From: an uncultured Dehalococcoidia bacterium
GTDB lineage: Bacteria > Chloroflexota > Dehalococcoidia > GIF9 > UBA5629
Reading direction: 5' to 3'
DNA length: 56,189 nucleotides
Assembly: GCA_903929005.1 (NCBI GenBank)
Contig: CAIYTC010000177.1
Location: 1-56,189 of the forward strand
In this document: positions 19,604 through 42,679 of the stretch, in pieces
Numbering within the stretch: position 1 is the first letter of the stretch
Layout: each line of letters begins with the position of its first letter
Position numbers and translations under genes: made by a program
The notes under the pieces: generated by a model
What the model was told of the DNA's origin: nothing
Seen by the model: only the letters and a program-made list of their open reading frames with translations
Database searches by the model: none

Positions 19604-19750
19604 TGTTGCGAGGAGCATCCCAAAAATGTCTTTGCGAGAAGCCCGCAGGCGACGAAGCAATCTCAGGGCATAGCGCTACTAACAGGCAGATTGCCGCGGC
19701 CGCTACGGCGGCCTCGCAATGACAGACGTTAGAGTAAGCCTCGCATGACA
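19604..19750. repeat. GTCATTGCGAG-family palindromic element, copy 2 (nested arms)
   Basis: Core 19628-19723 GTCTTTGCGAG...GAAGCAATC...GATTGCCGCGGCC...CCTCGCAATGAC, flanked by outer TTGCGAGG / CCTCGCATGACA arms. Confidence 0.85.
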
Positions 19751-19763
19751 TATAAGGCCCCCC

Positions 19764-21422: not shown

Positions 21423-21475
21423 TTGACAGCCTCCTCAAAAATTATTTTATTATGCTCAGCTTATCACTTTAGCCT

Positions 21476-21516
21476 GAGATTGCTTCGTCACTTCGTTCCT
21501 CGCAAAGACATTTTTG
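21476..21516. repeat. GTCATTGCGAG-family element, half copy 3
   Basis: Reverse complement reads CAAAAATGTCTTTGCGAGGAACGAAGTGACGAAGCAATCTC, matching the left arm of copy 2. Confidence 0.8.
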
Positions 21517-21613
21517 TTTTTGCCATTGCGAACGTTTTGGGCAGTTCAGGAAGAGCGCCGCCACGCGGTCCCCTCTCTTAACACCCGTATCAGCCAATTT
21601 AATAACCTTTTAG

Positions 21614-21643
21614 CTGCCCCCGGCGGGTACCCGCCGGGGGCAG
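21614..21643. terminator. GC-rich perfect 30-bp palindrome (terminator or mRNA-stabilising hairpin)
   Basis: CTGCCCCCGGCGGGT/ACCCGCCGGGGGCAG just downstream of a minus-strand ligase gene. Confidence 0.6.
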
Positions 21644-21689
21644 AAAATAAACTTTTATGTCCCTGCAGTGTATCTACTTCACCAAATTA

Positions 21690-23381
21690 TTATTTCTTTG
21701 TTTTGGCTTTTTCTTCCTCTACCAGGACACGGCGCAGAACCTTGCCCACCATGGTCTTGGGCAATTCGCTGCGGAAGTCTATGAACTTGGGTATTTTATA
21801 GGCCACCAGTTTTTCCTTGCAGAATGCCTGTATTTCCTCGGCCGTAGCCGTCTTGCCGGCTGCCAGCACCACCCAGGCTTTAACGGCCTCGCCCTGCTTG
21901 GCGTCCGGTATGCCGGCCACGCAGACCTCTGCAACCGCAGGATGGGCATTGACAGCCTCTTCAACTTCCCTCGGCCATACCTGGAAGCCGCTGGGCTTGA
22001 TGAGATCCTTCTTGCGCGAAGTTATGAATAAATAGCCGTCCTCATCCATGTAGCCGATGTCACCCGTATAAAGCCAGCCATCCCGCAGCATCGCCATCGT
22101 CTCTTCGGTATTGTTCCAGTATCCGGCCATGAGCTGGGGCGCTTTGAAAACGATCTCGCCTTCTTTGCCGGCTGGCAAATCGCCTTCACCGGTCTCGGCA
22201 TCACCGATCCTCACGACGACATCAGGCAAGGGCATACCCGTGGACCCCTCCTTCCATTTGCCGAGGTAGGGCGTGACGCAGGAGGCCATGGTGGTCTCGG
22301 TCAGCGCATAGCCCTCGACTATGCGCCCGCCGGTGAGATCCTCGAAGCGTTTCTTGGTATCTGCCAGCAGGGGCGCTGCGCCCGAAACACAAAACTTCAT
22401 CGATTTGAAATCGACTTTCCCGGCCTTGACCTTGGGATGCTCCAGCAGCGAAATATACAGGGCTGGAACTGCCGGGAAGAAGGTCGGTTTATCGTGTTGA
22501 ATAGTAGCAATCATGTCTTCACGGTCACGCGGGTTGGGCACCAGCGACATGGACACATGGCAAACTATTGCCGTACACATCACACCGAAGGTGGCAAATG
22601 AGTGGAACAGCGGGAGCAACGTCATAATTACATCTTTGTACTCCTCAATCATGGTTCCAAACCATGCCTTATACTGCAGCCCGGTAACAACCTGTGAATG
22701 ATGTGTGCCTATCACACCCTTGGGGGTGCCGGTGGTGCCGCCGCTGAAGAGTATCAGCGCAGGGTCTGACGGCACTACCTTGACAGCCGGCCTCTTGGCG
22801 CCGTCCTGCTCCTTAATCATGTCCAGCAGCCAGATATCGCCTTTTTCCAACTCTGCATAGTGCCCTTCCTTTTTCTCCTTGACTAATGTGAAGAGCACCT
22901 TGAGCACGGGCGACAGGTAGTCTTTGATGCTGGTGGCGATGACCAGCTTAACTTTGGTGCGCGCTTGGATCTTTTTTAACTGGCTGTAGAACATAGTCAG
23001 GACGACTACAGTTTCCGCCCCGCAATCTTTGAGCGCATGCTCGAGCTCGGGCTCAGTGTAGGTGGGATTCAGGTGCACCAGGATAGCGCCTATTTTCCAG
23101 GCGCCCCAGCGGCAAATTATGGCCTGCGGGCAGTTGGGCATGAGCAGGGCCACGCGGTCGCCCTTCTTTACCCCCTTGGCTACCAGTGCAGCGGCGAATT
23201 CATCGCTCCATTTCTGCACTTCAGCATAGGATATCTTGCGCTTTTTAAAATGAAGCATGGGGTAACCAGGGTGTGCCTTGGCCGACTCATCCACGTAATC
23301 AACAAGAGTTTTCTGTGGATAGGGTTCCAGTGTTTTTGGGACCCCGGGATCGTAATTTTTCAACCAGCGGTACTCTGCCAT
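21690..23381 (-). CDS. Long-chain fatty acid--CoA ligase
   Basis: FSGGTTGTPKG, YALTE, TGDIG, PKTMVGK; start reassigned to ATG 23381 after GGAGG. Confidence 0.92.
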   Translation of the reverse strand: MAEYRWLKNYDPGVPKTLEPYPQKTLVDYVDESAKAHPGYPMLHFKKRKISYAEVQKWSDEFAAALVAKGVKKGDRVALLMPNCPQAIICRWGAWKIGAILVHLNPTYTEPELEHALKDCGAETVVVLTMFYSQLKKIQARTKVKLVIATSIKDYLSPVLKVLFTLVKEKKEGHYAELEKGDIWLLDMIKEQDGAKRPAVKVVPSDPALILFSGGTTGTPKGVIGTHHSQVVTGLQYKAWFGTMIEEYKDVIMTLLPLFHSFATFGVMCTAIVCHVSMSLVPNPRDREDMIATIQHDKPTFFPAVPALYISLLEHPKVKAGKVDFKSMKFCVSGAAPLLADTKKRFEDLTGGRIVEGYALTETTMASCVTPYLGKWKEGSTGMPLPDVVVRIGDAETGEGDLPAGKEGEIVFKAPQLMAGYWNNTEETMAMLRDGWLYTGDIGYMDEDGYLFITSRKKDLIKPSGFQVWPREVEEAVNAHPAVAEVCVAGIPDAKQGEAVKAWVVLAAGKTATAEEIQAFCKEKLVAYKIPKFIDFRSELPKTMVGKVLRRVLVEEEKAKTKK

Positions 23382-23432
23382 GTAATAACCTCCCTGCAAA
23401 TTTTTATTTTCGATTGATTTGTTTATACCCTG

Positions 23433-23460
23433 CTGCCCCCGGCGGCCCGGCCGGGGGCAG
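23433..23460. terminator. GC-rich hairpin homologous to the one at 21614
   Basis: CTGCCCCCGGC-N6-GCCGGGGGCAG. Confidence 0.55.
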
Positions 23461-23490
23461 GTTATTCTGCGCTAATTTTAAACCATCAGC

Positions 23491-25182
23491 TTATTTTTTG
23501 TTTTTTGCCGCTTCTTCCTCGACCAGCACCCGGCGCAATACTTTGCCGACCATGGTCTTGGGCAGTTCGCCGCGGAATTCCACGAACTTGGGAATCTTAT
23601 AGGCCACAAGCTTCTCTTTGCAGAATGCCTGTATTTCCTCGGCCGAAGCCGTCTGGCCGGCTGTCAGCACCACCCAGGCCTTAACGGCCTCGCCCTGCTT
23701 GGCATCCGGTATACCTGCCACGCTGACTTCGGCCACCGCCGGGTGGCCATTGATGACCTCTTCGACTTCCCTCGGCCAGACCTGGAAGCCACTGGGCTTG
23801 ATCAGGTCCTTCTTGCGCGAGGTGGTAAAAAGATAGCCGTCATCATCCATGTAACCCACGTCTCCGGTGTAAAGCCAACCGTCGCGCAGCATTTCTTTGG
23901 TCTCCTCCGGTTTTTTCCAGTACCCGGCCATGAGTTGCGGCGCCCGGAAGACGATCTCGCCTTCTTTGCCCGCCGGCATCTCGCCATCACCGGTTTCGAT
24001 ATCACCGATGCGGATGATAACGTCCGGGAGGGGCATGCCTACAGAGCCCTGCTTCCATTTGCCCCTATAGGGGGTGCAGGTGCAGGCCATGGTGGTCTCG
24101 GTAAGCCCGTAGCCCTCCACGATGCGTCCGCCGGTCAGGTCTTCAAAGCGTTTCTTGGTCTCCGCCATCAGCGGCGCCGCGCCGGAGTTGCAGCATTTCA
24201 TGGAGCTGAAGTCAACCTTGCCTGCCTTGACCACCGGGTGCTCCAGCAGTGCTATGAACATGGCGGGAACAGCCGGGAAAAAGGCAGGCCTGTCGTGCTG
24301 TATGGTGGCTATCACGTCGTCGCGATCGCGCGGGTTGGGCACCAGCGACAGGGCAGAGTGGCCAACGATGGCCGTGCTCATCACCGCGTAGGTCGCGAAC
24401 GAATGGAACAGCGGCAGCACCACCATCATCACGTCCTTGTACGGCTCGGTGATCTCGCCAAACCACCTGTCGAACTGCAGGCCGGTTATGACCTGTGAAT
24501 GGTGGGTACCCACCACGCCCTTGGGGGTGCCTGTTGTGCCGCCGGAGAAAAGTATCAGCGCAGGGTCTGCCGGCATTACCTTGACGTCGGGACGTTTGGC
24601 CCCGGCTTTCTCTTTTATGAGGTCCGTCAGCCAGAAATCGCCGGGCTGCAGTACTATAAAGTGGCCTTCCTTTTTCTCCTTTAACAGCGTGAAGAGCACC
24701 TTGAGCACCGGCGGAAGATAGTCTTTGATACCGGTGGCAATGACCAGCTTTATAGCGGTGCGCGCTTGAATCTTTTTTAACTGGTTGTAGAACATAGTCA
24801 GGACAACTACGGTTTCCGCCCCGCAGTCTTTGAGCGCATGCTCAAGTTCGGAATCGGTATACATCGGGTTCATGTGCACCAGGATGGCGCCGGCCTTCCA
24901 GGCGCCCCAGCGGCAAATAATCGCCTGCGGGCAGTTAGGCATAATCAAGGCCACGCGGTCACCCTTTTTTACACCTTTGGCTGCCAGCATAGCGGCAAAT
25001 TCATCGCTCAGCTTCTGGATCTCGGCATAGGACATTTTCCTTTTCTTGAAAAGTACCATTGGGTAATCAGGGTGTTCCTTGACTGCCTCATCTACATAAT
25101 CGACCAGCGTCTTCTGCGGATAGGGCTCCAATGTAGCCGGAACCCCTTTGTCATAGTTTTTTAACCACCTTTTGTCGGACAA
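23491..25182 (-). CDS. Long-chain fatty acid--CoA ligase
   Basis: FSGGTTGTPKG, YGLTE, TGDVG, PKTMVGK; TTG start with GGAGG RBS; closest paralog is 21690..23381. Confidence 0.92.
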   Translation of the reverse strand: MSDKRWLKNYDKGVPATLEPYPQKTLVDYVDEAVKEHPDYPMVLFKKRKMSYAEIQKLSDEFAAMLAAKGVKKGDRVALIMPNCPQAIICRWGAWKAGAILVHMNPMYTDSELEHALKDCGAETVVVLTMFYNQLKKIQARTAIKLVIATGIKDYLPPVLKVLFTLLKEKKEGHFIVLQPGDFWLTDLIKEKAGAKRPDVKVMPADPALILFSGGTTGTPKGVVGTHHSQVITGLQFDRWFGEITEPYKDVMMVVLPLFHSFATYAVMSTAIVGHSALSLVPNPRDRDDVIATIQHDRPAFFPAVPAMFIALLEHPVVKAGKVDFSSMKCCNSGAAPLMAETKKRFEDLTGGRIVEGYGLTETTMACTCTPYRGKWKQGSVGMPLPDVIIRIGDIETGDGEMPAGKEGEIVFRAPQLMAGYWKKPEETKEMLRDGWLYTGDVGYMDDDGYLFTTSRKKDLIKPSGFQVWPREVEEVINGHPAVAEVSVAGIPDAKQGEAVKAWVVLTAGQTASAEEIQAFCKEKLVAYKIPKFVEFRGELPKTMVGKVLRRVLVEEEAAKNKK

Positions 25183-25245
25183 GTTAGAACCTCCTAAAGA
25201 TTTGATTTTATCATTAAGCGTAAAACGCCTGATTACCTCCGTTGA

Positions 25246-26949
25246 TCATGCTTTGGCTGCCTTCTGCTTAGCTAACTCCTCTTCCACCAGTATGCGCTTC
25301 AATATTTTGCCGACCAGTGTCTTGGGCAATTCTGTTCTGAACTCAACATGCTTGGGAACCTTATAGGCCGTCAGCTTCTCACGGCAATGCAATTGAATTT
25401 CCTCCGCAGTAGCCGTCTCACCCTGTTTAAGCACTACCCAGGCCTTTACCGCTTCCACCTGGTACGCGTCCGGGATGCCTGCTACGCCAACCTCAACTAC
25501 CTTGGGATGGGTGCTTATGACCTCTTCAACCTCCCTCGGCCAGACCTGGAAGCCGCCGGGCTTGATCAGCTCTTTTATGCGGGAGGTTATAAACAGGCAG
25601 CCGTCATCGTTCAGGTAGCCGACATCGCCTGTATGCAGCCAACCGTTGCGTATCATCTCGCTGGTAGCCTCCGGCCTGTTCCAGTAGCCCGGCATTATCT
25701 GTGGGCACTTCGCAATTATCTCGCCTTCCTGGCCGGCAGGCATGTCTTTCTCACCTGTCTCAACATCCACAATACGGATAATAACATCGGGCAGGGGGAT
25801 GCCGGCCGAACCGGGGGTCCACTTGCCCTCTACCGGTCCCAGTGTGATAGCAGCGGTCAACTCCGTCATGCCATAGCCTTCGATCAGCTTACCGCCCGTC
25901 AACTCCTCGAACCGCCTCTTGGTTTCCGGAAGCAGCGGTGCTGCTGATGCAACACAAAGCTTCATGGATTTAAAGTCGACCTTCCCCGCTTTGACCGCCG
26001 GGTGCTCCAGCAGTGCGATAAAAAGCGTCGGCACAGCCGGGAAATAGGCGGGTTTGACCTTATTTATCGTATTCACCAGGTCATCCCGGTCGCGCGGATT
26101 GGGAACTACCGCCAGCGGATTGTGCCCCATAATGGAAGTGCCCATTACCCCGGCAAAGCCGTAAACGTGGAAGAGCGGCATGATCATCATGACCACATCA
26201 TCCCACTCGGTCAAGACACTATCGTTCCATACCTTGAGCTGCCAGGCCTCGGCGACCAGGCATTTATGCGTTATGATTACCCCCTTGGGGACGCCGGTGG
26301 TGCCGCCGCTGAAAAGAAGCAGGGCAATATCGTCCGGCAGCGGCTTGTGATCAGGGGCAGTATCCCCCGCGTGCTTGAGCATCAGGTCAGCTAAGTAAAC
26401 ATCATTTTGCGCAAGCTTTATACGGTGACCTTCCTTCTTCTCCTTGAGCAGGGTGAACATCAGCGCCAGGAAGGAGGGCAGGTATTCCTTGATATTGACA
26501 GCTATCACCAAACGCAGGCTGGTACGCGCCTGTATCTTCTTCACAGTGGCACAGAACGGTGTCAATACTACGGCTACCTCTGCGCCGCATTCTTTCAATG
26601 CATGTTCCAGTTCGTACTCGGTATACATCGGGTTGAGCGGCACCGGTATGGCGCCCGCTTTCCAGGCGCCGAAAGACGAGATAAAACCCTGCGGGCAATT
26701 GGGCAGGAGGATGGCCACACGGTCTCCTTTTTTCACCCCGTTAGCCTGCAGCGCCGCAGCGAATATATTAAATAGCCTGACCATTTCCCCGTAAGTGATT
26801 GTCCTGCCTTTAAAAAACAGGAACGGGTGCCCGGGCCTCTTCCTGGCGGAATCCTCCACCACATCCATAAATGTCACTGCCGGATACGGTTCCAGTGTGT
26901 GCGGAACCCCTTTGTCATAGCTCTTGAACCACGGATAATCGATTGCCAT
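25246..26949 (-). CDS. Long-chain fatty acid--CoA ligase
   Basis: FSGGTTGVPKG, YGMTE, TGDVG, PKTLVGK. Confidence 0.92.
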   Translation of the reverse strand: MAIDYPWFKSYDKGVPHTLEPYPAVTFMDVVEDSARKRPGHPFLFFKGRTITYGEMVRLFNIFAAALQANGVKKGDRVAILLPNCPQGFISSFGAWKAGAIPVPLNPMYTEYELEHALKECGAEVAVVLTPFCATVKKIQARTSLRLVIAVNIKEYLPSFLALMFTLLKEKKEGHRIKLAQNDVYLADLMLKHAGDTAPDHKPLPDDIALLLFSGGTTGVPKGVIITHKCLVAEAWQLKVWNDSVLTEWDDVVMMIMPLFHVYGFAGVMGTSIMGHNPLAVVPNPRDRDDLVNTINKVKPAYFPAVPTLFIALLEHPAVKAGKVDFKSMKLCVASAAPLLPETKRRFEELTGGKLIEGYGMTELTAAITLGPVEGKWTPGSAGIPLPDVIIRIVDVETGEKDMPAGQEGEIIAKCPQIMPGYWNRPEATSEMIRNGWLHTGDVGYLNDDGCLFITSRIKELIKPGGFQVWPREVEEVISTHPKVVEVGVAGIPDAYQVEAVKAWVVLKQGETATAEEIQLHCREKLTAYKVPKHVEFRTELPKTLVGKILKRILVEEELAKQKAAKA

Positions 26950-26952
26950 TAT

Positions 26953-28407
26953 TCAGCCTCCCGAATATATTTTATTTCCCGTAGCTATTGATAAAAATTT
27001 CCCGTCTGACGATTTAGTTTTTTCCCCGTCAAGAAGTGTGCGCCTGTGCAGGAACAGGTTGCCGTCCTCGTCTATGTAACCTGTGTCGCCCGAATACAGC
27101 CATCCGTCCCGCAGCATGTCAGCCGTTTCCTGCGGCTGCTGCCAGTACTCTTTCATCAGGTTGGGCGCCTTGAAGCAAATCTCGCCGGGTTGCCCGGCCT
27201 TCTTGCTGCCCCGGCCGGTTTCTGCATCAGCAACCCGGATAATTACGTCCGGCAGGGGCAACCCCACCGAACCTTCTTTATTTTCACCCAGTACAGAATT
27301 GAGCGTAGCAGCCTGCATGCACTCTGTCATGGTGTAGCCTTCCAGCAGCCTGCCGCCGGTCATACTTTCAAAGCGTTTCTTGGTCTCGGCCATCAGCGGG
27401 GCGGCGCCCACAATACATAATTTCAGGCTCTCCAGCGCGACCTTGCCCGATTTAACCAGCGGGTGGTTCATAATGCCGATATAGAAAGTCGGCACGCCCG
27501 TCATGCAAGCCGGTTTATATTTTTTAATGCTTTTGACCACGTCCGTGAGGTCGCGCGGGTCGGGTATAAGGACACAGGATGAATGATTGACCATGGCCAA
27601 GCCCAGGGCGCCCACACAGCCGGATACGTGAAATAACGGCATAGTCAGCGCCACCCTGTCATACCACTCCTCAAGCACCGGGCTCAGCCATGCCTTTATC
27701 TGCATGGCAGTCATTACCAGCGCCTGGTGAGTACCCACGGCGCCTTTGGGTGTGCCGGCAGTGCCGCCGCTGAAGAGGATCACGGCCGCATCTGAGGGCT
27801 TCACCTCAATAGCAGGGCGTGCGGCGTTCTTAAATTTTCTCAGCAAATCCTGGAACCATGCATCCCCCCCCTGCAGGGCTATGCGGTGGCCTTCCTTTTT
27901 CTCTTTAACCAGCGTAAAAAGCAGGCCCATGTGCGCGGGCAGGTACTCTTTAACATTAGTTGCGATAACCGCCTTAACCCCGGTCCTGGCCTGCACCGCC
28001 TTCACGGCGGTGTAGAAGGGTGTCAGCGCGATAACAGCAGCAGCGCCCACTTCGTTCAAGGCATGTTCCATTTCGTGCTCCGTGTACAGCGGATTTACCG
28101 GGACGGCGATGGCGCCTGCTTTCCAGATTGCGTGGAAGCCAAGTATCATCTGGGGACAATTGGGCAAAAGCATGGCCACACGGTCACCCTTCTGCACGCC
28201 CAGGGAAATAAGACCTGCGGCCAGGGCATCGCTCTGGCGGATAAAATCAGCATACAATAGCCTGGAGCCTTGGAAAAACAGCACTGCCCGGTAAGGCCTG
28301 GCCCTGGCAGACTCATCGACGATATCGATCATAGTCTTGGGCGGATAAGGTTTCAGCGTGCGCGGCACACCTTTATCATAATTCTTTAACCATGGACATC
28401 GTTCCAA
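26953..28407 (-). CDS. Acyl-CoA ligase lacking the C-terminal subdomain (truncated, possible pseudogene)
   Basis: FSGGTAGTPKG, YTMTE and SGDTG are present, but homology stops at the hinge (GNLFLHRR) and there is no PKTxVGK motif. Confidence 0.8.
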   Translation of the reverse strand: MERCPWLKNYDKGVPRTLKPYPPKTMIDIVDESARARPYRAVLFFQGSRLLYADFIRQSDALAAGLISLGVQKGDRVAMLLPNCPQMILGFHAIWKAGAIAVPVNPLYTEHEMEHALNEVGAAAVIALTPFYTAVKAVQARTGVKAVIATNVKEYLPAHMGLLFTLVKEKKEGHRIALQGGDAWFQDLLRKFKNAARPAIEVKPSDAAVILFSGGTAGTPKGAVGTHQALVMTAMQIKAWLSPVLEEWYDRVALTMPLFHVSGCVGALGLAMVNHSSCVLIPDPRDLTDVVKSIKKYKPACMTGVPTFYIGIMNHPLVKSGKVALESLKLCIVGAAPLMAETKKRFESMTGGRLLEGYTMTECMQAATLNSVLGENKEGSVGLPLPDVIIRVADAETGRGSKKAGQPGEICFKAPNLMKEYWQQPQETADMLRDGWLYSGDTGYIDEDGNLFLHRRTLLDGEKTKSSDGKFLSIATGNKIYSGG

Positions 28408-29703: not shown

Positions 29704-29996
29704 CGAGGGTAATAAACAAGACTAACCCTCGCGGAGGTGGTTAATGGTCAAAAAACAGGCCATGCTCGTGATATGGCACTTTCCTTTGACATGCTCTCAT
29801 CTGCGCGGGGAGCAGAGGTAAGCTCCCCTGACGCAGGCAGTGAGAGCCTGTAAAACTCCCGAGCTCTCCGGTACGTAGCAGTAAAGCTGCGGAATTATGG
29901 ACAAAGCAGAGAAATCAGGCTTGCCTGAATGGGGGAGTAGGGAGGAAAACGGATCTGAAAGATCTAAGGGGCTTCGCGTTGCGAAGCCCCTTTTTT
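29704..29996 (+). ncRNA. Candidate structured ncRNA (may also encode a 25-aa peptide at 29744..29821)
   Basis: Own promoter and intrinsic terminator; many nested stems; no long + strand CDS fits inside. Confidence 0.6.
29966..29996 (+). terminator. Rho-independent terminator
   Basis: AAGGGGCTTCGC-GTT-GCGAAGCCCCTT followed by a T run. Confidence 0.88.
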
Positions 29997-30025: not shown

Positions 30026-30982
30026 CTAATACCCGTCAGTTGCATTCAATCCTTTGGCTTTGAATATATCAATTATCCCGCACATGCGCTCGCTGGTGAG
30101 CGGTGTGCGGCCGTTCAGTTGGTAGGCCCGGCCCAGCGACTGGTACTTGGCCCGGCCCCACTCATGATAGCCCAGCAGCGACATTTTCTCGGCCTTCATG
30201 CCCTGCAGCTTGCCGGCCAGCGCCTGCATATATTTATCGCTGTCGTTGTAACCGGGGATGACTGGCAACCTGATCCAAATGCGGGATTTATTGGCATTCA
30301 TGGCCTTCTCCAAATTAGAGAGGATAAGCTTGTTGTCCACACCTGTACCATCGCGGTGCTCCTCAGCGTCGACATGCTTGACATCAAAAAGCACCAGGTC
30401 GGTATATTCCAGCGCTTTCTCCAATATCTCCCAGGGTACATGTCCGCAAGTATCCAGGGCAGTGTTGAAACCGCGCTCTTTAAGACAGGTGAGCAACTCC
30501 AGGGCGAAACCGGCCTGAAGCAAAGGTTCACCGCCCGACAGGGTGACGCCTCCTCCCGAGTTGCGGTAGAAAAGCTCATCTTTTGAGCACTCTTCGACCA
30601 CCTCCCCAACGCTCATCTGCCTGCCGGCCAGCTCAAGGGCGTCTTCCCAGCAGACTTCCATGCATTTCAGGCAGAGGTCGCATTTATCCCTGTCCAACCG
30701 CAGGCCGCTGGCAGCCAGCGAGAGCGCGCCAGGTGCACAGACCGTAATGCAGCGCCCGCAGCCGTTGCAGCGGGCCTCCCTGACCATTAACTCGGCAGCC
30801 GGACTGAGCGATTCAGGGTTGGAGCACCACTTGCAGCGCAGGGGGCAACCCTTGAAAAAGACCGTGCTCCTGATGCCCGGACCGTCATGTATGCTGTAGC
30901 GCTGGATGTTGAAGACCAGGCCTTTAGTGTCCGTACCGCCCTTGTACGCGCTTCCGGCAGGCTCCCGTGAATCTAAAAGCAC
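30026..30982 (-). CDS. Glycyl-radical enzyme activating enzyme (radical SAM with ferredoxin-like insertion)
   Basis: HDGPGIRSTVFFKGCPLRCKWCSNPE, two extra CxxCxxCxxxC motifs, GGVTLSGGEP; overlaps the GRE stop. Confidence 0.93.
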   Translation of the reverse strand: MLLDSREPAGSAYKGGTDTKGLVFNIQRYSIHDGPGIRSTVFFKGCPLRCKWCSNPESLSPAAELMVREARCNGCGRCITVCAPGALSLAASGLRLDRDKCDLCLKCMEVCWEDALELAGRQMSVGEVVEECSKDELFYRNSGGGVTLSGGEPLLQAGFALELLTCLKERGFNTALDTCGHVPWEILEKALEYTDLVLFDVKHVDAEEHRDGTGVDNKLILSNLEKAMNANKSRIWIRLPVIPGYNDSDKYMQALAGKLQGMKAEKMSLLGYHEWGRAKYQSLGRAYQLNGRTPLTSERMCGIIDIFKAKGLNATDGY

Positions 30983-33369
30983 TGCGGAGTCCTGGCTATG
31001 ATGGAATCCTGTATATTCCTGTCCAGGTCGATAAAGTAGGCAGCGAAGCCGGCCACCCTTACCATCAGCGCGGGGTACTTCTCAGGATGCTCCTGCGCAT
31101 CCTCCAGCGTCTCCCGGTTCACGGTGGAGAACTGGATATGATGTATGCCCATATCGGCGAACGTTTTGAGATACTGCGCGAAGACCCCGGCGTTATGCCC
31201 TACCAGGTACTGCGGCATGAAGCTCTGGTTGAAGAGGTGGTTCCAGCTTATCAGCGGGTCCACCTTGGCCACGGAGCGCAGCACGGCGGTCGGGCCTTTC
31301 TTATCGCGACCGGCCATGGGGGAGATGGTACCGTCGTTGAAGGGGTCGCCCAGCATCCGGCCATCCGCGGTCGCGGCGCAGACCCTGCCGAAGCTCCACC
31401 AGGCAGTGGCGGCTGTGCCGTCAATGTGCACGGGGCCGCCCCAGTTGGTCTTGCATTTAGCGGTCTCCTCTTCGAGGCGGCGGGCCACGTCGCGCGAGGT
31501 CAGGTCGGCATAGTCGTCGTCATTGCCGAATTTGGGTGCGCGCAGGCACATCTGCCGGATCTCCTCGAAGCCCTTCCAGTTGTTTTTGAGCGCCTCTACA
31601 AGCTGCGTCATGGTGATTCTCTTATCGTCAAAAACCAGCTTCTTGACCGCGGTCAGCGAGTCCGCCACGGTGTTGAGTCCGAAGAGCGTCACATCGCGGT
31701 AATCGGGCATGTAGTTCCAATCGCGCACGTCCTGCGACCTCTCGATGCAATCATCGATGACGGAGGACAGGAAGGGACGCGGCGCCCACTCTTTATAGAG
31801 GGCGTCGGCGATATTGGCGATGCGCACCAGGCGGTGTATGACCAGCCGGTAGTTCTCCATGGTGGCATCGAAGAGCTCCTCCATGGAGGTTATCTTCCCG
31901 GGGTCAAGTACCTTGTTGCCTGCCCTCTTGTAAATGGCCAACGGGTCAATGCCCAGCGCCTGGTTGAGGCAGAGGGGAGCGGGCACGCCGCTGGCCCATG
32001 CCGATATATGGCTGAAGTTCTTGCCGGGGATGGTGGGCACCATGCAGTTGTTGATGGAGTAATTGCGCGCATCTTCGAGCGGGGTGCCCAGGTTGACCAG
32101 CCTCTGAACAACGACCTTGTCATTGAAGATGGCCGGTTGGGGCATGCCCGACGCCAGGCACTCGATGGCCTTGTCCACCAGTTTCGGGGGTATGCCGTCA
32201 TGCCAGCGCAGGGCCAGCGGCGGAACGATGGCGCGCACGCTCATAGTAGCATCGAGGATGATAAAGCTCATCTCGCCGGTTACATCGCGGCCTTTAGAAT
32301 CCACACCGCCGATGGTCACCGTCTGGAAGCCCAGCGCGCCGCCGCCGAAGCCGGACCAGATAGGCGCGTGCAGGAAACCGGTCTCCTGGAATTTCACAAA
32401 AAGGAACTCTACCAGCTCCTGGGCCGACTCGCGGGTTACCTTGCCGGCGGCCAGGTCGTTTTCGTAGAAGGGATTGAAGACAACATCGAACCTGATGCCG
32501 GAGCCCACCTGGGGCATCTCCAGGAAATTCACCACCAGGTGGATAAACCAGTAAGACTGAATGGCCTCGTGCAGTGTGCGGGCGGGATCCTCGGGAACGC
32601 GGTCGCAGATATCGGCGATGTTCTCGAGTTCCACCTTGCGCAGCACTTCCTTCTCAGATTTGGCCAGGCTGCGCGCCAGTGCCGCGTACCTTTTGGACCA
32701 CCGGCTGACGGCCTCCAGTGTTATGATAGCGCCCTGCAGGAAATCCTTCCTTTTAACAAAATCAATGCCGTTGATGGTCTCAGCCATATATTCTTCATCA
32801 AGCTTCTTGAGACGCTCCTTAGCTTCCTCCAGGATACCTTTCAGCCCCATGGAAAGTATCTTGTCATAGTTGGGCGTGGCCGATTCCCAGTTGAAGATCC
32901 AGAACTGCTCGGCCAGCTCCTTGGTCAGGTATTTTTTGGCCATGTGGTGGATGGAGCGGTCGCCCCAGTAGGCGCCTATCTCCTTGAGCTCCTGTCTGCC
33001 CTCGTCGGTGAGCATGCTGGTGTAGACCTGGCCGGGGGCGGTCTCACGGGCTATCCACTTCCAGGCCAGTTCGGGGTAAAAGGGCACCGAATCGCTGTTG
33101 GAGGCGTAATTGCCCACGATCATTTCGTCGGGCCGGATATAAATTGTCATGTTATCCAAAAGGTGCGCCAGCGCCCTGGCGCGGCGCAGCGAAGTGGGTT
33201 GCCCCTCGGTTTGCTTGTATGATTGTGTCACCAGCTTCGCGCGCTCCAGGTCGAGCGACCAGATGAAGCCCGGCCTGGTGGCCCTGGCATCAGCGCTGAG
33301 CGACTCCAGCGCCACCTGCTGCGCCTTGATAGGAGTCTTAACCATTAATTCCTGCGTTCTTGTGGTCAT
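30973..33369 (-). CDS. Glycyl radical enzyme (PFL-like family), function unknown
   Basis: Gly loop LMVRVAGFAAYF; PKFGNDDD; Cys loop NNCMVP. Confidence 0.92.
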   Translation of the reverse strand: MTTRTQELMVKTPIKAQQVALESLSADARATRPGFIWSLDLERAKLVTQSYKQTEGQPTSLRRARALAHLLDNMTIYIRPDEMIVGNYASNSDSVPFYPELAWKWIARETAPGQVYTSMLTDEGRQELKEIGAYWGDRSIHHMAKKYLTKELAEQFWIFNWESATPNYDKILSMGLKGILEEAKERLKKLDEEYMAETINGIDFVKRKDFLQGAIITLEAVSRWSKRYAALARSLAKSEKEVLRKVELENIADICDRVPEDPARTLHEAIQSYWFIHLVVNFLEMPQVGSGIRFDVVFNPFYENDLAAGKVTRESAQELVEFLFVKFQETGFLHAPIWSGFGGGALGFQTVTIGGVDSKGRDVTGEMSFIILDATMSVRAIVPPLALRWHDGIPPKLVDKAIECLASGMPQPAIFNDKVVVQRLVNLGTPLEDARNYSINNCMVPTIPGKNFSHISAWASGVPAPLCLNQALGIDPLAIYKRAGNKVLDPGKITSMEELFDATMENYRLVIHRLVRIANIADALYKEWAPRPFLSSVIDDCIERSQDVRDWNYMPDYRDVTLFGLNTVADSLTAVKKLVFDDKRITMTQLVEALKNNWKGFEEIRQMCLRAPKFGNDDDYADLTSRDVARRLEEETAKCKTNWGGPVHIDGTAATAWWSFGRVCAATADGRMLGDPFNDGTISPMAGRDKKGPTAVLRSVAKVDPLISWNHLFNQSFMPQYLVGHNAGVFAQYLKTFADMGIHHIQFSTVNRETLEDAQEHPEKYPALMVRVAGFAAYFIDLDRNIQDSIIARTPQCF

Positions 33370-36053: not shown

Positions 36054-36111
36054 TAATCGTACCCTCCTTATTCATGTGTAAGATAATTATTATATCCAAA
36101 TTGCGACGGAC

Positions 36112-36260
36112 AGATTGCCGCGGCCACTGCGGCGGCCTCGCCCCCAAAAACGTCATTGCGAGCGCAGCGAAGCAATCTATCCCCGTACATGACAATAGGA
36201 TTGCCGCGTCGCTGCCTGCCACGCCTGCGGCTCGCAGCTACGGCTAATCCTCGCAATGAC
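36112..36260. repeat. GTCATTGCGAG-family element, copy 4 (composite)
   Basis: GATTGCCGCGGCC..CCTCGC, then GTCATTGCGAGCGCAGCGAAGCAATC...GATTGCCGCG...CCTCGCAATGAC. Confidence 0.85.
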
Positions 36261-36267
36261 GACATGC

Positions 36268-37068
36268 TCAGCGTCCCTTGAATTGTGGTAAGCGCTTGTT
36301 GCGGAAAGAGTCCAGCCCTTCCCGGAAATCCTCGCTGCCCATCAGGAACTTCTGCGCATAGGTCTCGAAGTAAAGCTGCTGCTCAAGGTTATTCAGCAGG
36401 CCGTTTTGCACGGCGCGCTTTATCTGCTTGAGCGCTAGCGGCGGGCCCTGCGCTATCCTGTTGGCCAGCGCTTCAGCCTCCTCCATCAGCTTCTCATGCG
36501 GCACGACCCGGTTGACCAGTCCGATGCGCTCGGCCTCGCGGGCATCAATGGAGTCGCCGGTGTACATATATTCGTAGCAGCGCCCGGTGCCCAGCAGCCG
36601 CGGCATCAGGAAGGTGCATCCGCAGTCTGGTATCAGGCCCCGCATCACGAAGGCCAGGTTGAAGATTGCTCTCTCGGAGGCGATACGTATGTCGGAGAGC
36701 AGAGCGATAGATATGCCGCCACCCGCCGCCACACCGTTGACCGCGGCGATGACCGGTTTCTCAAGGTTGTAAAGGCCCAGCACGAGAGCGCCGCCGATGG
36801 TCTCGCCGCGCGGCTCCAGCATCCCCTGCAGCCTGCCCTCCTCCGCCGCCTGGTTGAAGAGGACGATATCCGCGCCGGTGCAAAAGCCTTTACCCGCGCC
36901 GGTAATGATGAGGGCGCGTACCCCATCGTCCTCCTGCACCTCCCTAAAGATTTTAGGCAGCAGTTCGTTGCTTATCTCCGCCGTCAGGGCGTTCAGCCTG
37001 TGCGGACGGTTCAGGGTCAGGACGGCAACGCCGTTTCTTTTCTCCAGCACCAGGCCTTCGTATTCCAT
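36268..37068 (-). CDS. Enoyl-CoA hydratase/isomerase family protein
   Basis: LTLNRP, FCTGAD, KPVIAAVNGVAAGGG, GLIPDCG. Confidence 0.92.
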   Translation of the reverse strand: MEYEGLVLEKRNGVAVLTLNRPHRLNALTAEISNELLPKIFREVQEDDGVRALIITGAGKGFCTGADIVLFNQAAEEGRLQGMLEPRGETIGGALVLGLYNLEKPVIAAVNGVAAGGGISIALLSDIRIASERAIFNLAFVMRGLIPDCGCTFLMPRLLGTGRCYEYMYTGDSIDAREAERIGLVNRVVPHEKLMEEAEALANRIAQGPPLALKQIKRAVQNGLLNNLEQQLYFETYAQKFLMGSEDFREGLDSFRNKRLPQFKGR

Positions 37069-37125: not shown

Positions 37126-38277
37126 TCAGGCCTTCACGGTCAACCCGGCGGGGAATTTCTCACCCAGTATCTTAACGGCGCCACCGATAATGTCGTCCAT
37201 AACTTCCTGTGTGCTCCGTACCTTCTTGATCAGGCCGGTAACCTGGCCGGCGAACATGGGGAAATATTCCGTCTGGCCTTTCTCCATCATGCCCTGCACC
37301 AGGTCGGCCACCAGCATGCTCTGCAGCGGCATGGGCAGCGTCTTAAGCCCGGACTTTTCCCAGGCCTCATCAAATCTGTTTTTAAAAGCCCGCGTAGTCT
37401 TGCCGCTGTAAATACGGGTTATCTGTTCTGCTTCTTCGTCCGATTCGATCAGCTTGCGGTAGTAGGCATCTATGGTCACTTCATTGATCATGCCGAGCCC
37501 GATGAAGTCCACGAAACACTCATGGGTAGCCAGGAAGGCGGTCCCGCACCAGGCACCGATAGCCCCCAGAGCCAGTGCAGCCACCAGGCCGCGGCCGTCG
37601 GCTATCCCGCCCGCAGCTACCACCGGGGTCGGGGCCACGGCATCCACCACCTGCGGGACCAGCGCGAAGGTGCCGATCCTGCCGGTGTGCCCTCCGGCAT
37701 CGTGGCCCTGCGCAATGATAATATCCGCCCCCATCTTTTTAATGCGGACGGCATTACGCACATTGCCTACCAGCGAGATAATCTTGATGCCGGCCTCGTG
37801 CGCCTCGGGAATTAACCAGTCCGGGGTGCCCAGGCCGAGGGCGAAGAAGGGCACCTTTTCCTCCTTGACCACCTGGAACTGGCTGCGGCCGAACTCCTCG
37901 GAGATAGGCCATTCCTTCATACGGGCGCCCTCCACGCCGAAATCCTTAGCCATCTTCTGGACGAAAGCGGTGTGCTCGGGAGGTATATACTCCTTGAGCT
38001 TGCCCGGGTCGAAATCCTTAGGGATAGCAGCGGGAAGCAGTATATCCACGCCGAAAGGTTTGTCGGTCAGTTGACGTGTTTTCCTGATCCATGCCCTCAG
38101 TTCGTCGGGCCACAGGAAGGTGGCGCCGAGCATACCCAAGCCTCCGGCATTGGAAACCGCGGCGGTCAACGTGTAACCGCCGGCCGTCCCCATCCCTGCC
38201 AGCATCACCGGGTATTCGACACCGAGTATATCGCACAGCACGGTGCGGAATACGGGACGCCCATTCATTGTAACCAT
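37126..38277 (-). CDS. Nitronate monooxygenase / FabK-like flavoprotein
   Basis: AVSNAGGLG, AQGHDAGGH, AAGGIADGRG, GTAFLATHE. Confidence 0.9.
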   Translation of the reverse strand: MVTMNGRPVFRTVLCDILGVEYPVMLAGMGTAGGYTLTAAVSNAGGLGMLGATFLWPDELRAWIRKTRQLTDKPFGVDILLPAAIPKDFDPGKLKEYIPPEHTAFVQKMAKDFGVEGARMKEWPISEEFGRSQFQVVKEEKVPFFALGLGTPDWLIPEAHEAGIKIISLVGNVRNAVRIKKMGADIIIAQGHDAGGHTGRIGTFALVPQVVDAVAPTPVVAAGGIADGRGLVAALALGAIGAWCGTAFLATHECFVDFIGLGMINEVTIDAYYRKLIESDEEAEQITRIYSGKTTRAFKNRFDEAWEKSGLKTLPMPLQSMLVADLVQGMMEKGQTEYFPMFAGQVTGLIKKVRSTQEVMDDIIGGAVKILGEKFPAGLTVKA

Positions 38278-38287: not shown

Positions 38288-39985
38288 TTATTTTGGCTTG
38301 GCCATCAGTGTCCTGATCTCGCGTTTAAGTATCTTACCCACTGCGCTGGTAGGAAGCTGGTCATAGAATTCGATGCGCTTGGGTACCTTATAAGGCGCAA
38401 CCCTGCCTCGCAGGTATTCGGTGATCTTCGTTTTCTCAGCATCGCTCTTTTCAATGCCCGCCTTCAAGACGATGGCCGATGCCACAATCTCCGAACCGGG
38501 CCTTTCCGGATCAGGTATCCCCACGCTGGCCCCTAAATCCACGTCCGGGTGTTCGCAAATAACATCGTCAAGTTCACGCGTAAACACTTTCATCCCTGAG
38601 ACATTGACCATGTCCTTGATGCGGTCCACAATGGTCACGAAACCCTCTTCATCCATCTTACCCACATCGCCCGTGTGGAACCAGCCGTTCCGCAGCACGT
38701 GGGCCGTCTCATCCGGTTTCCTGAAGTATCCCTTGGTAAATACCTGCGGACCCTTTACAGCAATCTCGCCCGGCTCGTTGAAGGGAACCGATTCGCCGGT
38801 TGCCGGGTCGACGATTTTAATCACGGTATCGGGGAAGGGTAAGCCCACTGCGCCCGCTATCTTCTTACCGTAGCGCGGATTGGCCGTTATGAGTGGGCTG
38901 GTCTCGGTCAGGCCGTACACTTCCACCAGTTTACTCTCACCCACAATCTTCTCAAACTCCTTGATATATTCCGGGGGGAACGGGGCGGCGCCGCTGACAA
39001 AAAATTGGACGTCGCTGAAATCATATGCTTTGAAATCCGGTTTCTTCATCAACTCCAGGAAGATCGTGGGTACGTTGCCGATGATATTCGGCCTGTGCTT
39101 CTTCATGGCCTTGATGATAAATTTCTGGTCGCGCGGGTTGGGTACCGCGACCTGAGTAATGGCCTTGGAGAACATCGTCATGCATATTATCAGGCCGGCT
39201 ATATGGAAGAGCGGGAAGCAGGTCATGCCGACCGTCTCACCCATCTTAGTATCCACCCAGGTCGAGATTTGGGTCATCTGCCACACGATGTTGCGGTGTG
39301 TAAGCTCGGCGCCCTTGGGCAGGCCGGTGGTGCCGCCCGTGTATTGCATCACGCAGGTATCATCCATGCTGACTTTCTCCGCCACCGGGTCGGCCGGCAT
39401 GCTCTTCATGACCTGCTTGAAATCATATATCTCGATGCCGGGGATGGGCAGCACCTTGCCCGTGGGTATCTTTTTCAGCAGTTTCCCCATCGTGGCCAGC
39501 ACCGGGGAGAGGTAATCGGCAATGCCGGTGAACACGATAGCCTTTAGTTGCGTGCCGTCGATGCCCTTGATGACCCGCGGGTAAAGCGCATCAAGGGTCA
39601 CCAGTACTTTGGTGCCGGAATCCTTAAGCTGGTGGTTGAGTTCTTCCGCTGTCAGCAGCGGACTTACGCCAGTAATCACACAGCCTGCCTTCTGTATGCC
39701 CACCAGTCCGATGTAATAGGCCGGGATATTGGGAAGGTTTATACCGACGGTATCGCCCTTCTTTACCCCGATCTTCTTGAGCAGGTTGGCGAAACGGTTG
39801 GACATTTCGTCAATCTGCTTGTACGTAAAGGGCGTGCCCATGTAGTGCAGTCCAACACGGTCGGGAAATGCCTTGAAGGCCGGCTCTATAGCCTCCCAGA
39901 ACGTTTTATCCGGGTATTGCAGGGTTGCCGGGACATGCTTGTCGTAGAACTTGAGCCAGGGTTTTTGTTCGTATATGTCAACCAT
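38288..39985 (-). CDS. Acyl-CoA ligase (AMP-binding protein)
   Basis: YTGGTTGLPKG, YGLTE, TGDVG, PTSAVGK. Confidence 0.92.
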   Translation of the reverse strand: MVDIYEQKPWLKFYDKHVPATLQYPDKTFWEAIEPAFKAFPDRVGLHYMGTPFTYKQIDEMSNRFANLLKKIGVKKGDTVGINLPNIPAYYIGLVGIQKAGCVITGVSPLLTAEELNHQLKDSGTKVLVTLDALYPRVIKGIDGTQLKAIVFTGIADYLSPVLATMGKLLKKIPTGKVLPIPGIEIYDFKQVMKSMPADPVAEKVSMDDTCVMQYTGGTTGLPKGAELTHRNIVWQMTQISTWVDTKMGETVGMTCFPLFHIAGLIICMTMFSKAITQVAVPNPRDQKFIIKAMKKHRPNIIGNVPTIFLELMKKPDFKAYDFSDVQFFVSGAAPFPPEYIKEFEKIVGESKLVEVYGLTETSPLITANPRYGKKIAGAVGLPFPDTVIKIVDPATGESVPFNEPGEIAVKGPQVFTKGYFRKPDETAHVLRNGWFHTGDVGKMDEEGFVTIVDRIKDMVNVSGMKVFTRELDDVICEHPDVDLGASVGIPDPERPGSEIVASAIVLKAGIEKSDAEKTKITEYLRGRVAPYKVPKRIEFYDQLPTSAVGKILKREIRTLMAKPK

Positions 39986-40020
39986 TGTAAAGCCTCCTCC
40001 TATTTTTTACCTTAAAATAT

Positions 40021-41718
40021 TTATTTTGGCTTCGCTAGCAGTGTTCTAAGCTCACGTTTAAGTATCTTACCCACTGCGCTGATAGGGAGCTGGTCATAGA
40101 ATTCAATGCGCCTGGGTACCTTGTAAGGCGCCACCCTGCCGCGCAGGTATTCGGTGATCTTCGTTTTCTCAGCATCGCTCTTTTCAACACCTGCCTTCAA
40201 TACGATGGCTGATACCACTATCTCCGAACCGGGCCTGTCCGGATCCGCTAACCCCACGGTGGCCCCCATATCCACATCCGGGTGTTCGCAAATAACATCG
40301 TCAAGTTCACGCGTAAACACTTTCATCCCTGAGACATTCACCATGTCTTTGAGCCTGTCAACTATAGTCAGGAAGCCATCCTCGTCCATCTTGCCAACAT
40401 CACCGGTATGGAACCAGCCGTCCCGCAATACGTTGGCGGTCTCCTGCGGCTTCTTGAAGTACCCTTTGGTAAATACCTGGGGTCCCTTTACAACCACTTC
40501 ACCGGGTTCATTGAAGGGCACAGGTTCACCGGTAGACGGATCGACGATCTTTATAATGGTATCAGGCAAGGGTATGCCCACCGCACCCGCTATCTTTTTG
40601 CCGTAGCGGGGACTGGCCGTTATGAGTGGGCTGGTCTCTGTCAGGCCGTATACTTCCACCAGCTTGTTATCACCTACTATCTTCTCAAACTCCTTGATAT
40701 ATTCCGGCGGGAACGGCGCGGCGCCGCTGGCAAAAAATTGGACATCGCTGAAATCATAGGCTTTGAAGTCCGGCTGCTTCATCAGCTCCAAGAACACTGT
40801 CGGCACATTGCCTATCATGATCGGCCTATGTTTCTTCATAGCCTTGATGATGAATTTCTGGTCGCGCGGGTTAGGTACTGCAATCTGTGTGATAGCCCTG
40901 CAACATAACGCTATGGCAACTATCAGTCCTGCTATATGAAACAGCGGGAAGGCTGTCAAGCCGACCCCTACGCCCATTTTGAAATCCAGCCAGGTCGTCA
41001 TCTGGGTCAATTGGTCAACGATGTTGCGGTGTGTAAGCTCGGCGCCCTTGGGCAGGCCGGTGGTACCGCCGGTATACTGCATGACGCAGGTATCATCCAT
41101 GCTGACCTTTTCTGAGACTGGATCCGCGGGCATGGTCTTCATAACCTGCTTGAAATGGTATATTTCAATACCGGGGAGCGGAAGGACTTTGCCCGTAGGT
41201 ATCTTCTTCAGCAGTTTCCCCATGGTTGCCAGGACCGGTGACAGGTAATCGGCGATACCCGTAAATACAATAGCCTTGAGTGCTGTACCTGCTACTGACT
41301 TCTCGATGCGCGGGTAAAGCGCGTCAAGTGATACCAGCACCTTGGCGCCGGAATCCTTAAGCTGGTGGTTGAGTTCTTCCGCTGTTAAAAGCGGGCTGAC
41401 ACCGGATAAAACGCAGCCGATCTTTTGTATACCAAGCAAGGATATATAGTAAGCAGGCAGGTTAGGAAGGTTAACGCCCACGATATCGCCTTTCTTAAGG
41501 CCTACCTTCTTCAGGAGATGGGCAAACCTGGTCGACATGATATCTAATTGCTTGAAAGTGAAGGGTGTTCCCATGTAGTAGAGCCCCACTTTATCCGGGA
41601 ACTCTGCAAAGGCGGGACCAACTACCTCCCAAAACGGTTTCTCCGGGTACTTCAGGTTTGCCGGGACTTGCTTGTCGTAGAACTTGAGCCAGGGTTTCTG
41701 TCCATAGATGTCTGTCAT
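40021..41718 (-). CDS. Acyl-CoA ligase (close tandem paralog of 38288..39985)
   Basis: Same length (565 aa), long identical stretches; YTGGTTGLPKG, PISAVGK. Confidence 0.92.
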   Translation of the reverse strand: MTDIYGQKPWLKFYDKQVPANLKYPEKPFWEVVGPAFAEFPDKVGLYYMGTPFTFKQLDIMSTRFAHLLKKVGLKKGDIVGVNLPNLPAYYISLLGIQKIGCVLSGVSPLLTAEELNHQLKDSGAKVLVSLDALYPRIEKSVAGTALKAIVFTGIADYLSPVLATMGKLLKKIPTGKVLPLPGIEIYHFKQVMKTMPADPVSEKVSMDDTCVMQYTGGTTGLPKGAELTHRNIVDQLTQMTTWLDFKMGVGVGLTAFPLFHIAGLIVAIALCCRAITQIAVPNPRDQKFIIKAMKKHRPIMIGNVPTVFLELMKQPDFKAYDFSDVQFFASGAAPFPPEYIKEFEKIVGDNKLVEVYGLTETSPLITASPRYGKKIAGAVGIPLPDTIIKIVDPSTGEPVPFNEPGEVVVKGPQVFTKGYFKKPQETANVLRDGWFHTGDVGKMDEDGFLTIVDRLKDMVNVSGMKVFTRELDDVICEHPDVDMGATVGLADPDRPGSEIVVSAIVLKAGVEKSDAEKTKITEYLRGRVAPYKVPRRIEFYDQLPISAVGKILKRELRTLLAKPK

Positions 41719-41851: not shown

Positions 41852-42679
41852 CTAACCCTTCACCGCGCTGACCTTGATGCTGCGTACTGCCTTACCAAGC
41901 TTCTTAAGGTCATCGCGGGACACTTTCTCGTCCTTGAGTATGGCCTGCGCCGTGGGGTCGTTGGACATGTAGTCCGTGCCGAAGCCGGATTCGTCGATTA
42001 CCTTCACATCCTTGAAGCCGGCCTGCTTAATTGCGTCCAGGTACTGCTCCTTGAGGGCGGCGCCGGCCAGGCAGCCGATATAGGCGGCTACCGATTTCTG
42101 CACCGTGCCCGGCAGCGCCTCAAGCAGGACGATGTCGGATACCATCAGCCGTCCGCCCGGCTTTAAAACACGGTAAGCCTCGCGGAAGACCTGCTCCTTA
42201 TCCGGCGAAAGGTTTATCACGCAGTTGGAGATGATGATGTCGACCTGGTTATCGCCGACAGGCAGGTTCTCGATCTCGCCCAGCCTGAATTCAACGTTAG
42301 CATAGCCGCCTTGGGCGGCGTTCTCCCTGGCCTTCTCCAGCATCTCGGGCGTCATATCCACGCCGATGACCCTGCCTTTCTTCCCCACACGGGATGAAGC
42401 CAAGAAGCAGTCGAAGCCGGCGCCCGAACCCAGGTCGAGCACCACTTCGCCCTCTTTGAGCGAGGCCAGCGCCACCGGGTTGCCGCAGCCCAGGCCAAGG
42501 TTAGCCCCGTCGGGCACCGAGTTCATCTCCTCTTCGCTGTAGCCGATGCCTTTGCTGATCTCCTTGGTCACGTCAATGCCGCAGCAGCCTGTTTGCTGAG
42601 GCCCGCAGCATGAGCCGCCGCCTTTGGCCACCCTGGCATAGCCCAGCCTGACGACTGTTTTGATCTCTTCTTTTTTCAT
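41852..42679 (-). CDS. arsM: Arsenite methyltransferase
   Basis: [35 protein letters not shown]; N-terminal CC pairs. Confidence 0.93.

Follow-up and report, generated by a model that had tools for sequence, protein, structure and literature searches.

The 56,189-nt contig CAIYTC010000177.1 of an uncultured Dehalococcoidia bacterium (assembly GCA_903929005.1), analyzed in full and hereafter called the window, encodes a glycyl radical enzyme (GRE), an oxygen-sensitive type of enzyme, together with its activase. As judged from its sequence, this GRE is a real and intact member of a widespread clade and carries the features for GRE function. The clade resembles the X-succinate synthases (XSS) in Cys loop and ancestry, yet lies outside every class testable here. 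We tentatively propose, with somewhat less than even confidence, that the enzyme is a redox-neutral radical isomerase whose substrate would be an unsaturated acyl chain (long-chain acid or acyl-coenzyme A (CoA)) and whose action would unblock β-oxidation.

An intact GRE from a widespread clade

The initial annotation had described a GRE with an RVAGF Gly loop and a single-Cys loop, and both were borne out. The open reading frame (ORF) has no internal stops, its Cys loop reads SINNCMVPTIPG, and the catalytic Cys442 (codon 32044–32046) and Gly774 could be located (Table 1). The residue before Cys442 is N441, so the adjacent Cys pair of pyruvate formate-lyase (PFL) is absent; the score against PFL was 111 bits. 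Neither Glu nor Arg occurs among the 22 residues C-terminal of Cys442. An AlphaFold2 (AF2) model (predicted local distance difference test 88.5, predicted template modeling score (pTM) 0.91) adopts a PFL-like fold, with template modeling (TM) scores of about 0.9 against glycerol dehydratase (GD) and benzylsuccinate synthase (BSS). An RVxG motif near the C terminus, the Cys loop and the PFL-like barrel are the features of the PFL-like GRE superfamily found in this protein.

A homolog search yielded 431 proteins at an E value of 1e-50 or better (7996 scored). The best 120, which are 58–94% identical to the window GRE, were aligned with the query, and the resulting 121 sequences underlie the conservation counts below. 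YSINNCMVP is present in 118 of them and is therefore a family trait rather than a sequencing quirk. Cys, Met and Pro of the loop are invariant, and Cys+2 is Val or Ile in 121/121, never Glu. The description of the loop as non-canonical thus holds for the whole family, but an odd Cys loop alone is not rare among uncharacterized GREs: loops without the Glu of the CxE motif occur in 70 of the 149 nearest 50%-identity representatives with an aligned Cys (150 representatives in total), and 11 representatives at 50% clustering carry a C-M-x-P loop.

Named hosts comprise Dehalococcoidia, other Chloroflexota, Smithellaceae, other deltaproteobacteria and one bin labeled alphaproteobacterial, as well as Loki-, Hermod-, Thor- and Jordarchaeia among the Asgard archaea. 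With identities from about 58% upward, the clade thus reaches across both bacteria and Asgard archaea, the nearest named loci (95–96%) being from Dehalococcoidia or Chloroflexota. In an even sample of 301 genomes from the host class, a close ortholog was found in 2 and 44–50% identical relatives in 21; of the 77 host-family genomes, 27 encode the GRE. The host genome gave five PFL-like matches, arising from four GRE genes. A literature search found no study of the clade; the motif itself was not searched in papers and subscription journals were mostly uncovered. An ESM Atlas search with a 90%-identical homolog returned generic GRE clusters only.

Several related loci have unusual arrangements. 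One Chloroflexota lineage (L022:5503-10397, with relatives such as G370:C2) carries two GRE copies in tandem, each sharing ~76% identity with the protein of the window; a single activase gene follows them. Locus L129 (G229:C152) has four related uncharacterized GREs in tandem, all with a C-M-R-W loop. In a Syntrophaceae bin (L035:804-10403), a 43%-identical relative is divergent from genes for a split B12 acyl-CoA mutase, MeaB, an MmgE/PrpD protein and a second activase.

Relationship to characterized GREs

No NCBIfam GRE model reached its cut-off. The best was TIGR01774 (539.8 bits versus 678.2), while the CutC, HypD, HpsG, HpfG and PflD models gave 417–489 bits (cut-offs 1000–1109), the IAD model 392 (cut-off 1100) and the HPAD model 300 (cut-off 1150). 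Identity to GREs with solved structures is about 29–34%, with scores of 457 bits for GD, 356 for BSS, 345 for MasD and 337 for arylacetate decarboxylase (AAD). Because no annotated BssA or MasD was among the 40 of 55 plasmid records listed, a BssA-like representative, P0151, which scores 755 bits against BSS, served as proxy for XSS. Structure searches placed GD, diol dehydratase, HypD, CutC and (1-methylalkyl)succinate synthase (MASS) all within 2 Z units; they confirm the fold and give no ranking of GRE classes.

Two trees were computed, in both of which XSS was represented by P0151 rather than by BSS itself, and PAD, AAD and HPAD were not among the rows. In a FastTree phylogeny of 68 of the 83 collected rows (near-duplicates dropped), the clade lies inside a 34-row group of uncharacterized GREs (support 100), separate from the XSS-like rows and from the GD, HypD, CutC, YbiW, PflD and HpsG-type rows. 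A quick IQ-TREE analysis (LG+G4, 31 rows) was rooted with PFL as a long-branched outgroup. It separated the clade's group (14 rows) from an XSS-like group (6 rows), with a Shimodaira–Hasegawa-like approximate likelihood ratio test (SH-aLRT) value of 99 each, and placed both within one 22-row group (SH-aLRT 100); exclusive sisterhood of the clade's group with the XSS-like rows received 81. On this phylogenetic evidence, the clade is placed on the XSS side of the tree and outside the XSS clade. It clustered tightly with no characterized GRE in these trees, and the earlier proposal of an uncharacterized class is upheld by the model scores, the low identities and the separate clade. The scheme behind that proposal, which divided GREs into PFL, eliminases and fumarate-adding enzymes, held insofar as the clade belongs neither to the CxE eliminases and isomerases nor to the fumarate-adders, but it had omitted the decarboxylases, of which AAD also lacks the Glu at Cys+2.

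Active-site residues

BSS numbering was carried to the window GRE through P0151, with residue roles in BSS and MASS taken from PMC4848970 and PMC12358834. The fumarate contacts common to both enzymes are a Cys-loop oxyanion hole and an Arg (PMC12358834). The C-M loop of BSS and MASS is retained in the window GRE, and the position of the fumarate-binding Arg (Arg508 in BSS, Arg492 in MASS) falls at 454–456, which are His, Ile and Ser. Across the family, residue 455 is Ile in 83 sequences, Arg in 33, Met in 3 and Val in 2. The Arg455 members are the 59–66% identical ones, Asgard proteins included, and most have Ala for Phe at 341. Since most sister lineages also have Arg at the equivalent position, a carboxylate anchor appears to have been lost in the window protein's subgroup. 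The earlier observation of a CMxP pattern with neither Glu nor Arg thus stands for this protein and, for Glu, across the family; for Arg it holds in 88 of the 121 sequences and does not extend to the 33 Arg455 members.

These residues bear on a radical C–C coupling like that of XSS that would operate without small subunits and join a C–H donor to an enoate or an enoyl-CoA; in the Arg455 subgroup, the acceptor could be fumarate. We regard this as rather unlikely. Where BSS and MASS both have the Arg (PMC12358834), the window protein has Ile, and its score against BSS is 356 bits, compared with 755 for a true BssA-like protein. Pfam models for BssB and BssC found nothing over cut-off in the host genome (97% complete), neither a CoA-transferase pair nor a mutase recurs beside the GRE, and exclusive sisterhood with the XSS-like rows has a support of just 81. 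Coupling would nonetheless agree with the C-M-x-P loop in common with BSS and MASS, the 22-row group uniting both sets of rows, the Arg455 kept in 33 of 121 members and most sister lineages, and the mutase beside the 43%-identical relative.

Positions lining the hydrocarbon pocket of BSS are occupied by smaller residues (Ile384 by G340, Leu391 by G347, Val709 by A654; also A656), which suggests more room in the pocket; residues 339–341 are the least confident part of the AF2 model. Polar positions are strongly conserved among the 121 sequences: E162, N440 and N441 in 118 each, and H454 and R558 in 120 each. Residue 559 is Asp in 115 and Glu in 6, and position 162 is Glu or Asp in 120. The substrate contacts of GD are replaced, its His by S163 and Q287, its Asp by S456/A457 and its Tyr by T652.

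The invariant Asp650, the acidic residue at 559 in every sequence, Glu/Asp162 and His454 would suit a 1,2-eliminase or lyase whose base has moved off the Cys loop to another strand and which would act, by dehydration or ether cleavage, on an acyl compound bearing a hydroxy, diol or ether group. Glycerol and diol dehydratases also give the best scores among solved GREs (457 bits, Z 46), and an alkene or carbonyl product could feed the same neighboring genes. C–O eliminases and isomerases, however, retain CxE according to PMC13450708, which names the Glu for CutC, IseG, IslA and HpsG, and this Glu is absent here. Together with the replaced GD contacts, the position of the clade outside the characterized eliminases in both trees and the absence of an alcohol or aldehyde dehydrogenase as a recurring GRE neighbor, this makes elimination unlikely in our view.

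Activase and small subunits

The activase ORF and the GRE stop overlap by 10 nt. Its motifs are a CX3CX2C (C46/50/53) and two CX2CX2CX3C (C72–82 and C101–111), which agrees with the two extra 4Fe–4S motifs noted initially; as auxiliary clusters are typical of the vast majority of GRE activases (PMC13450708), they are uninformative on GRE class. The protein scores 345.8 bits against TIGR02494, above the cut-off of 174.35, and 272.8 bits against the BssD model, under its cut-off of 496.45. An activase gene adjoins the GRE in 76 of the 86 related loci with enough flank; in the other ten (L075, L076, L078, L079, L105–L107, L109, L110 and L116), the GRE has no activase directly downstream. As the initial annotation had stated, no small-subunit ORF adjoins the GRE in the window, and no conserved small Cys-rich ORF was found beside it across 108 related loci.

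Gene neighborhood

Upstream of the GRE and on its strand lie genes for two acyl-CoA ligases, a FabK-like protein, a PaaG-like crotonase and a CrtI/FNR fusion, the last of which ends 38 nt from the GRE and is single-copy in the genome (Table 1). The CrtI/FNR gene was found in 26 of the 27 GRE-bearing genomes of the host family versus 5 of the 50 others, the FabK-like gene in 21/27 versus 3/50 and close ligase matches in 19/27 versus 4/50. In genus g2, the GRE and CrtI/FNR occur in the same 2 of 14 genomes, and their joint patchy presence spans seven genera. A CrtI-like gene is directly upstream of the GRE in 37 of the 77 loci with enough flank, among them loci of a second lineage whose gene is a distant paralog (33–35% identity).

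To compare lineages, the 108 loci were grouped at 80% GRE identity into 14 lineage groups and neighbors were counted in the flank covered. A CoA-ester enzyme is near the GRE in 10 of the 14 groups, and one of the two groups with an adjacent CrtI-like gene is a separate lineage with paralogs of 33–38% identity. Other recurring neighbors across groups are an acyl-CoA dehydrogenase, a thiolase with a ChsH2-type OB-fold protein, an old yellow enzyme (OYE)-family flavoenzyme, a thioesterase-like protein and DUF1302/DUF1329; the Asgard-type group and three other groups show none of these. Sister lineages adjoin crotonases, acyl-CoA dehydrogenases, thiolases and CoA-transferases. The presence of a cyclopropane-fatty-acid synthase close to locus L089 was treated as chance. 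Taken together, the gene context supports a hydrophobic acyl substrate for the GRE. Promoter scans were uninformative. In RNA data from related strains (four runs, two studies), contigs extend over the gene run and across the GRE–activase and CrtI–GRE junctions; since a control stretch is covered as well and word shares are low (0.05–0.11), they are no evidence of transcription or habitat.

The same linkage could be a passenger effect of genomes in which acyl-CoA genes abound, with the GRE acting on a small polar substrate unrelated to lipids. These neighbors are indeed missing around the GRE and activase in the Asgard group and mostly missing in a deltaproteobacterial-type group of eight loci, the ligase background is high, and rlmN is also syntenic with the GRE in the window's genus. 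We consider this reading improbable, given the patchy joint presence with a single-copy CrtI/FNR gene in seven genera, the rearranged gene order in L022-type loci and the fact that in other lineages the GRE has been paired independently with CrtI-like, ligase and acyl-CoA dehydrogenase genes.

The neighboring genes activate and oxidize acids rather than discard them, which argues against a PAD/AAD-type decarboxylase with an aryl- or alkyl-acetate as substrate. Similarity to AAD, IAD and HPAD is weak by the scores given above. On an assumed numbering of the PAD catalytic Cys, the essential Gln and Trp of PAD would fall on V444 and I455. A length of ~800 amino acids would be consistent with a decarboxylase, as would the missing Glu at Cys+2 and the lack of an accessory subunit in AAD (PMC13450708); on balance, we find this role quite unlikely.

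Proposed role

Without a Glu base and a fumarate Arg, and with partners that activate acyl chains and either reduce C=C bonds or shift them, the simplest role for the enzyme would be redox-neutral hydrogen abstraction and return, or reversible thiyl addition. Radical installation by an activase and relay to Cys are established GRE chemistry (PMC13450708); here the activase would install the radical on Gly774, from which it would pass to Cys442. The Cys-Met loop may hold the substrate carbonyl as it does the fumarate carboxylate in BSS and MASS, and the pocket, widened by the Gly/Ala substitutions and with Ile instead of Arg508, could accommodate an alkyl tail. The thiyl radical would take an allylic-type hydrogen, or add reversibly to the C=C bond, and then give it back, leaving the double bond shifted or isomerized; opening of a cyclopropane ring would be a variant. 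The product might then be handed to the adjacent CrtI-like/FNR reductase, enoyl-CoA isomerase and FabK-like reductase. In solution, thiyl radicals isomerize fatty-acyl double bonds and probably abstract bis-allylic hydrogens (PMC7465319).

Several points weigh against this isomerase role. The available part of PMC13450708 describes no characterized GRE that isomerizes a lipid. The active-site assignments were transferred by alignment only and are uncertain by one or two residues. The conserved E162, N440, N441, H454, D559 and D650 would fit acid–base chemistry or a polar substrate as well; the earlier suggestion of a hydrophobic substrate, favored by the acyl gene context, is qualified by a pocket that is not simply hydrophobic, these residues being kept in at least 95% of sequences. 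All neighbors score below curated cut-offs, so their names are those of the nearest models only. The host-family genomes are kin rather than independent samples, and many are incomplete. A CrtI-like gene is adjacent in only 2 of the 14 lineage groups, no CoA-ester gene is nearby in 4, including the 11-locus Asgard group, and the best CrtI-like matches in five genomes outside the host family are only 30–43% identical. The host genome has 29 AMP-binding and 20 acyl-CoA dehydrogenase matches, and the background for such neighbors is therefore high.

A broader proposal, which we hold as possible but doubtful, is that the clade forms a new functional GRE class of lipid radical isomerases that, in fatty-acyl chains, would shift or isomerize double bonds or open cyclopropane rings. 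Such enzymes would provide a step so far missing from the way Dehalococcoidia, deltaproteobacteria and Asgard archaea turn over membrane and plant lipids anaerobically, the Arg455 subgroup possibly acting on free acids and the Ile455 subgroup on CoA esters or longer tails. The cyclopropane-opening variant taken alone, based on chemical reasoning, seems highly improbable.

According to PMC13450708, whole GRE clades still await experimental validation, and for archaeal PFL-like GREs no function is established. With a range across bacteria and Asgard archaea, its own activase and recurring partner genes, the clade is a well-defined target for assays. Lipid isomerization, if true, would be a new reaction type for the GRE superfamily and an added step in anoxic lipid recycling. 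Uncharacterized GRE loops are common and the substrate is hypothetical, which tempers the interest; C-M-x-P GREs in sediment genomes are, as a caution, no proof of hydrocarbon activation.

Table 1 Features of the GRE locus in the window
Feature	Position	Strand	Remark
GRE of uncharacterized clade, 798 amino acids	30973..33369	-	PF02901 and PF01228 domains; AF2 model
Cys loop SINNCMVP with Cys442	32035..32058	-	Aligns with GD Cys loop
Gly loop RVAGF, radical site Gly774	31045..31059	-	
Ile455, equivalent within one residue to BSS Arg508	32005..32007	-	
Gly-rich cap segment WSGFGGGALG (338–347)	32329..32358	-	Small residues where BSS has Ile384 and Leu391
Conserved Tyr557-Arg558-Asp559	31693..31701	-	Start of strand carrying Trp613/Asn615 in BSS
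Asp650-Gly651-Thr652, invariant (121/121)	31414..31422	-	Thr652 aligns with GD Tyr640 and BSS Gln707
Radical S-adenosylmethionine (SAM) GRE activating enzyme with ferredoxin-like insert, 318 amino acids	30026..30982	-	
12-bp hairpin, possible unit end	29966..29992	.	Downstream of activase; T-run on + strand instead
CrtI/retinol-saturase-like FAD domain fused to FNR and 2Fe–2S domains, 881 amino acids	33408..36053	-	
Crotonase-fold protein nearest PaaG-type enoyl-CoA isomerases	36268..37068	-	TIGR02280 best, below cut-off; PDB matches including 4fzw_C
FabK-like FMN enoyl reductase/nitronate monooxygenase family protein	37126..38277	-	
Two tandem FadD-like acyl-CoA ligases, head of gene run	38288..41718	-	Best models long-chain-fatty-acid–CoA ligase, below cut-off

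Other features of the window

The contig carries eight AMP-binding (FadD-like) CoA ligases (17845–28407 and 38288–41718) of the 29 matches in the genome, six of them in tandem downstream of rlmN. One of these (26953–28407, minus strand; 484 amino acids) has no AMP-binding C-terminal domain and ends at an in-frame stop one codon ahead of the next ligase start; it is probably truncated. A repeat-like element (36068–36265) lies in the 214 nt that separate the crotonase gene from the CrtI/FNR gene; contigs of each of the four RNA runs pile up on it, showing joints and loose ends. Arsenic-resistance-like genes for a SAM methyltransferase, an SBF/Acr3-type transporter, an ArsP permease and DsbD-like proteins occupy 41852–47838, followed by three tandem PKD/Ig-domain proteins of 228–240 amino acids (47849–50018). 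At 13747–16008, a 753-amino-acid fusion protein joins a GatZ/KbaZ-like domain to a PfkB kinase.

Comparison with known systems

The GRE 1,2-eliminases, comprising the glycerol and propanediol dehydratases (PDB 1R8W, 5I2A), CutC, HypD, IseG and HpsG, share with the window GRE the absence of small subunits, and the two dehydratases have the top raw similarity among solved structures (457 bits, 33–34% identity, Z 46). The window GRE differs in lacking the CxE Glu and the substrate-binding His, Asp and Tyr of GD, in lying outside the eliminase group in both trees and in scoring far under all curated cut-offs. Among the GRE decarboxylases (AAD, PDB 7E7L; PAD, IAD and HPAD), AAD likewise has neither a Glu at Cys+2 nor an accessory subunit, whereas identity to the AAD and HPAD structures is 23–28%, the loops differ and the context in the window is acyl-CoA catabolic.

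The five ‘Ass/Bss-like’ GREs proposed for Hermodarchaeota (PMC8163825) are also single-Cys enzymes with three-cluster activases from Asgard archaea, but in the archaeal sequences of that study Gly tends to precede the Cys where the window clade has Asn. The window clade includes Hermodarchaeota members, and the two sets may or may not overlap. Redox-neutral isomerization, the outcome proposed here, is shared with the GRE isomerases HplG, YbiW and PflD. These keep CxE and cleave C–O or C–N bonds of polar substrates (PMC13450708), whereas the window GRE is without CxE and its proposed substrate is acyl.

The XSS (BSS alpha subunit, PDB 4PKC/4PKF/5BWD; MasD, PDB 9O8U) differ from the window GRE at 28–30% identity: it has Ile for Arg508, no match to Trp613, Asn615 or Gln707, smaller pocket residues and neither beta/gamma subunits nor Bbs-type downstream genes. 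What it shares with them is the PFL-like fold (Foldseek TM 0.90–0.92), a single Cys in a C-M-x-P loop (CMVP here, CMSP in XSS), a three-cluster activase and a place on the same side of the PFL-rooted tree.

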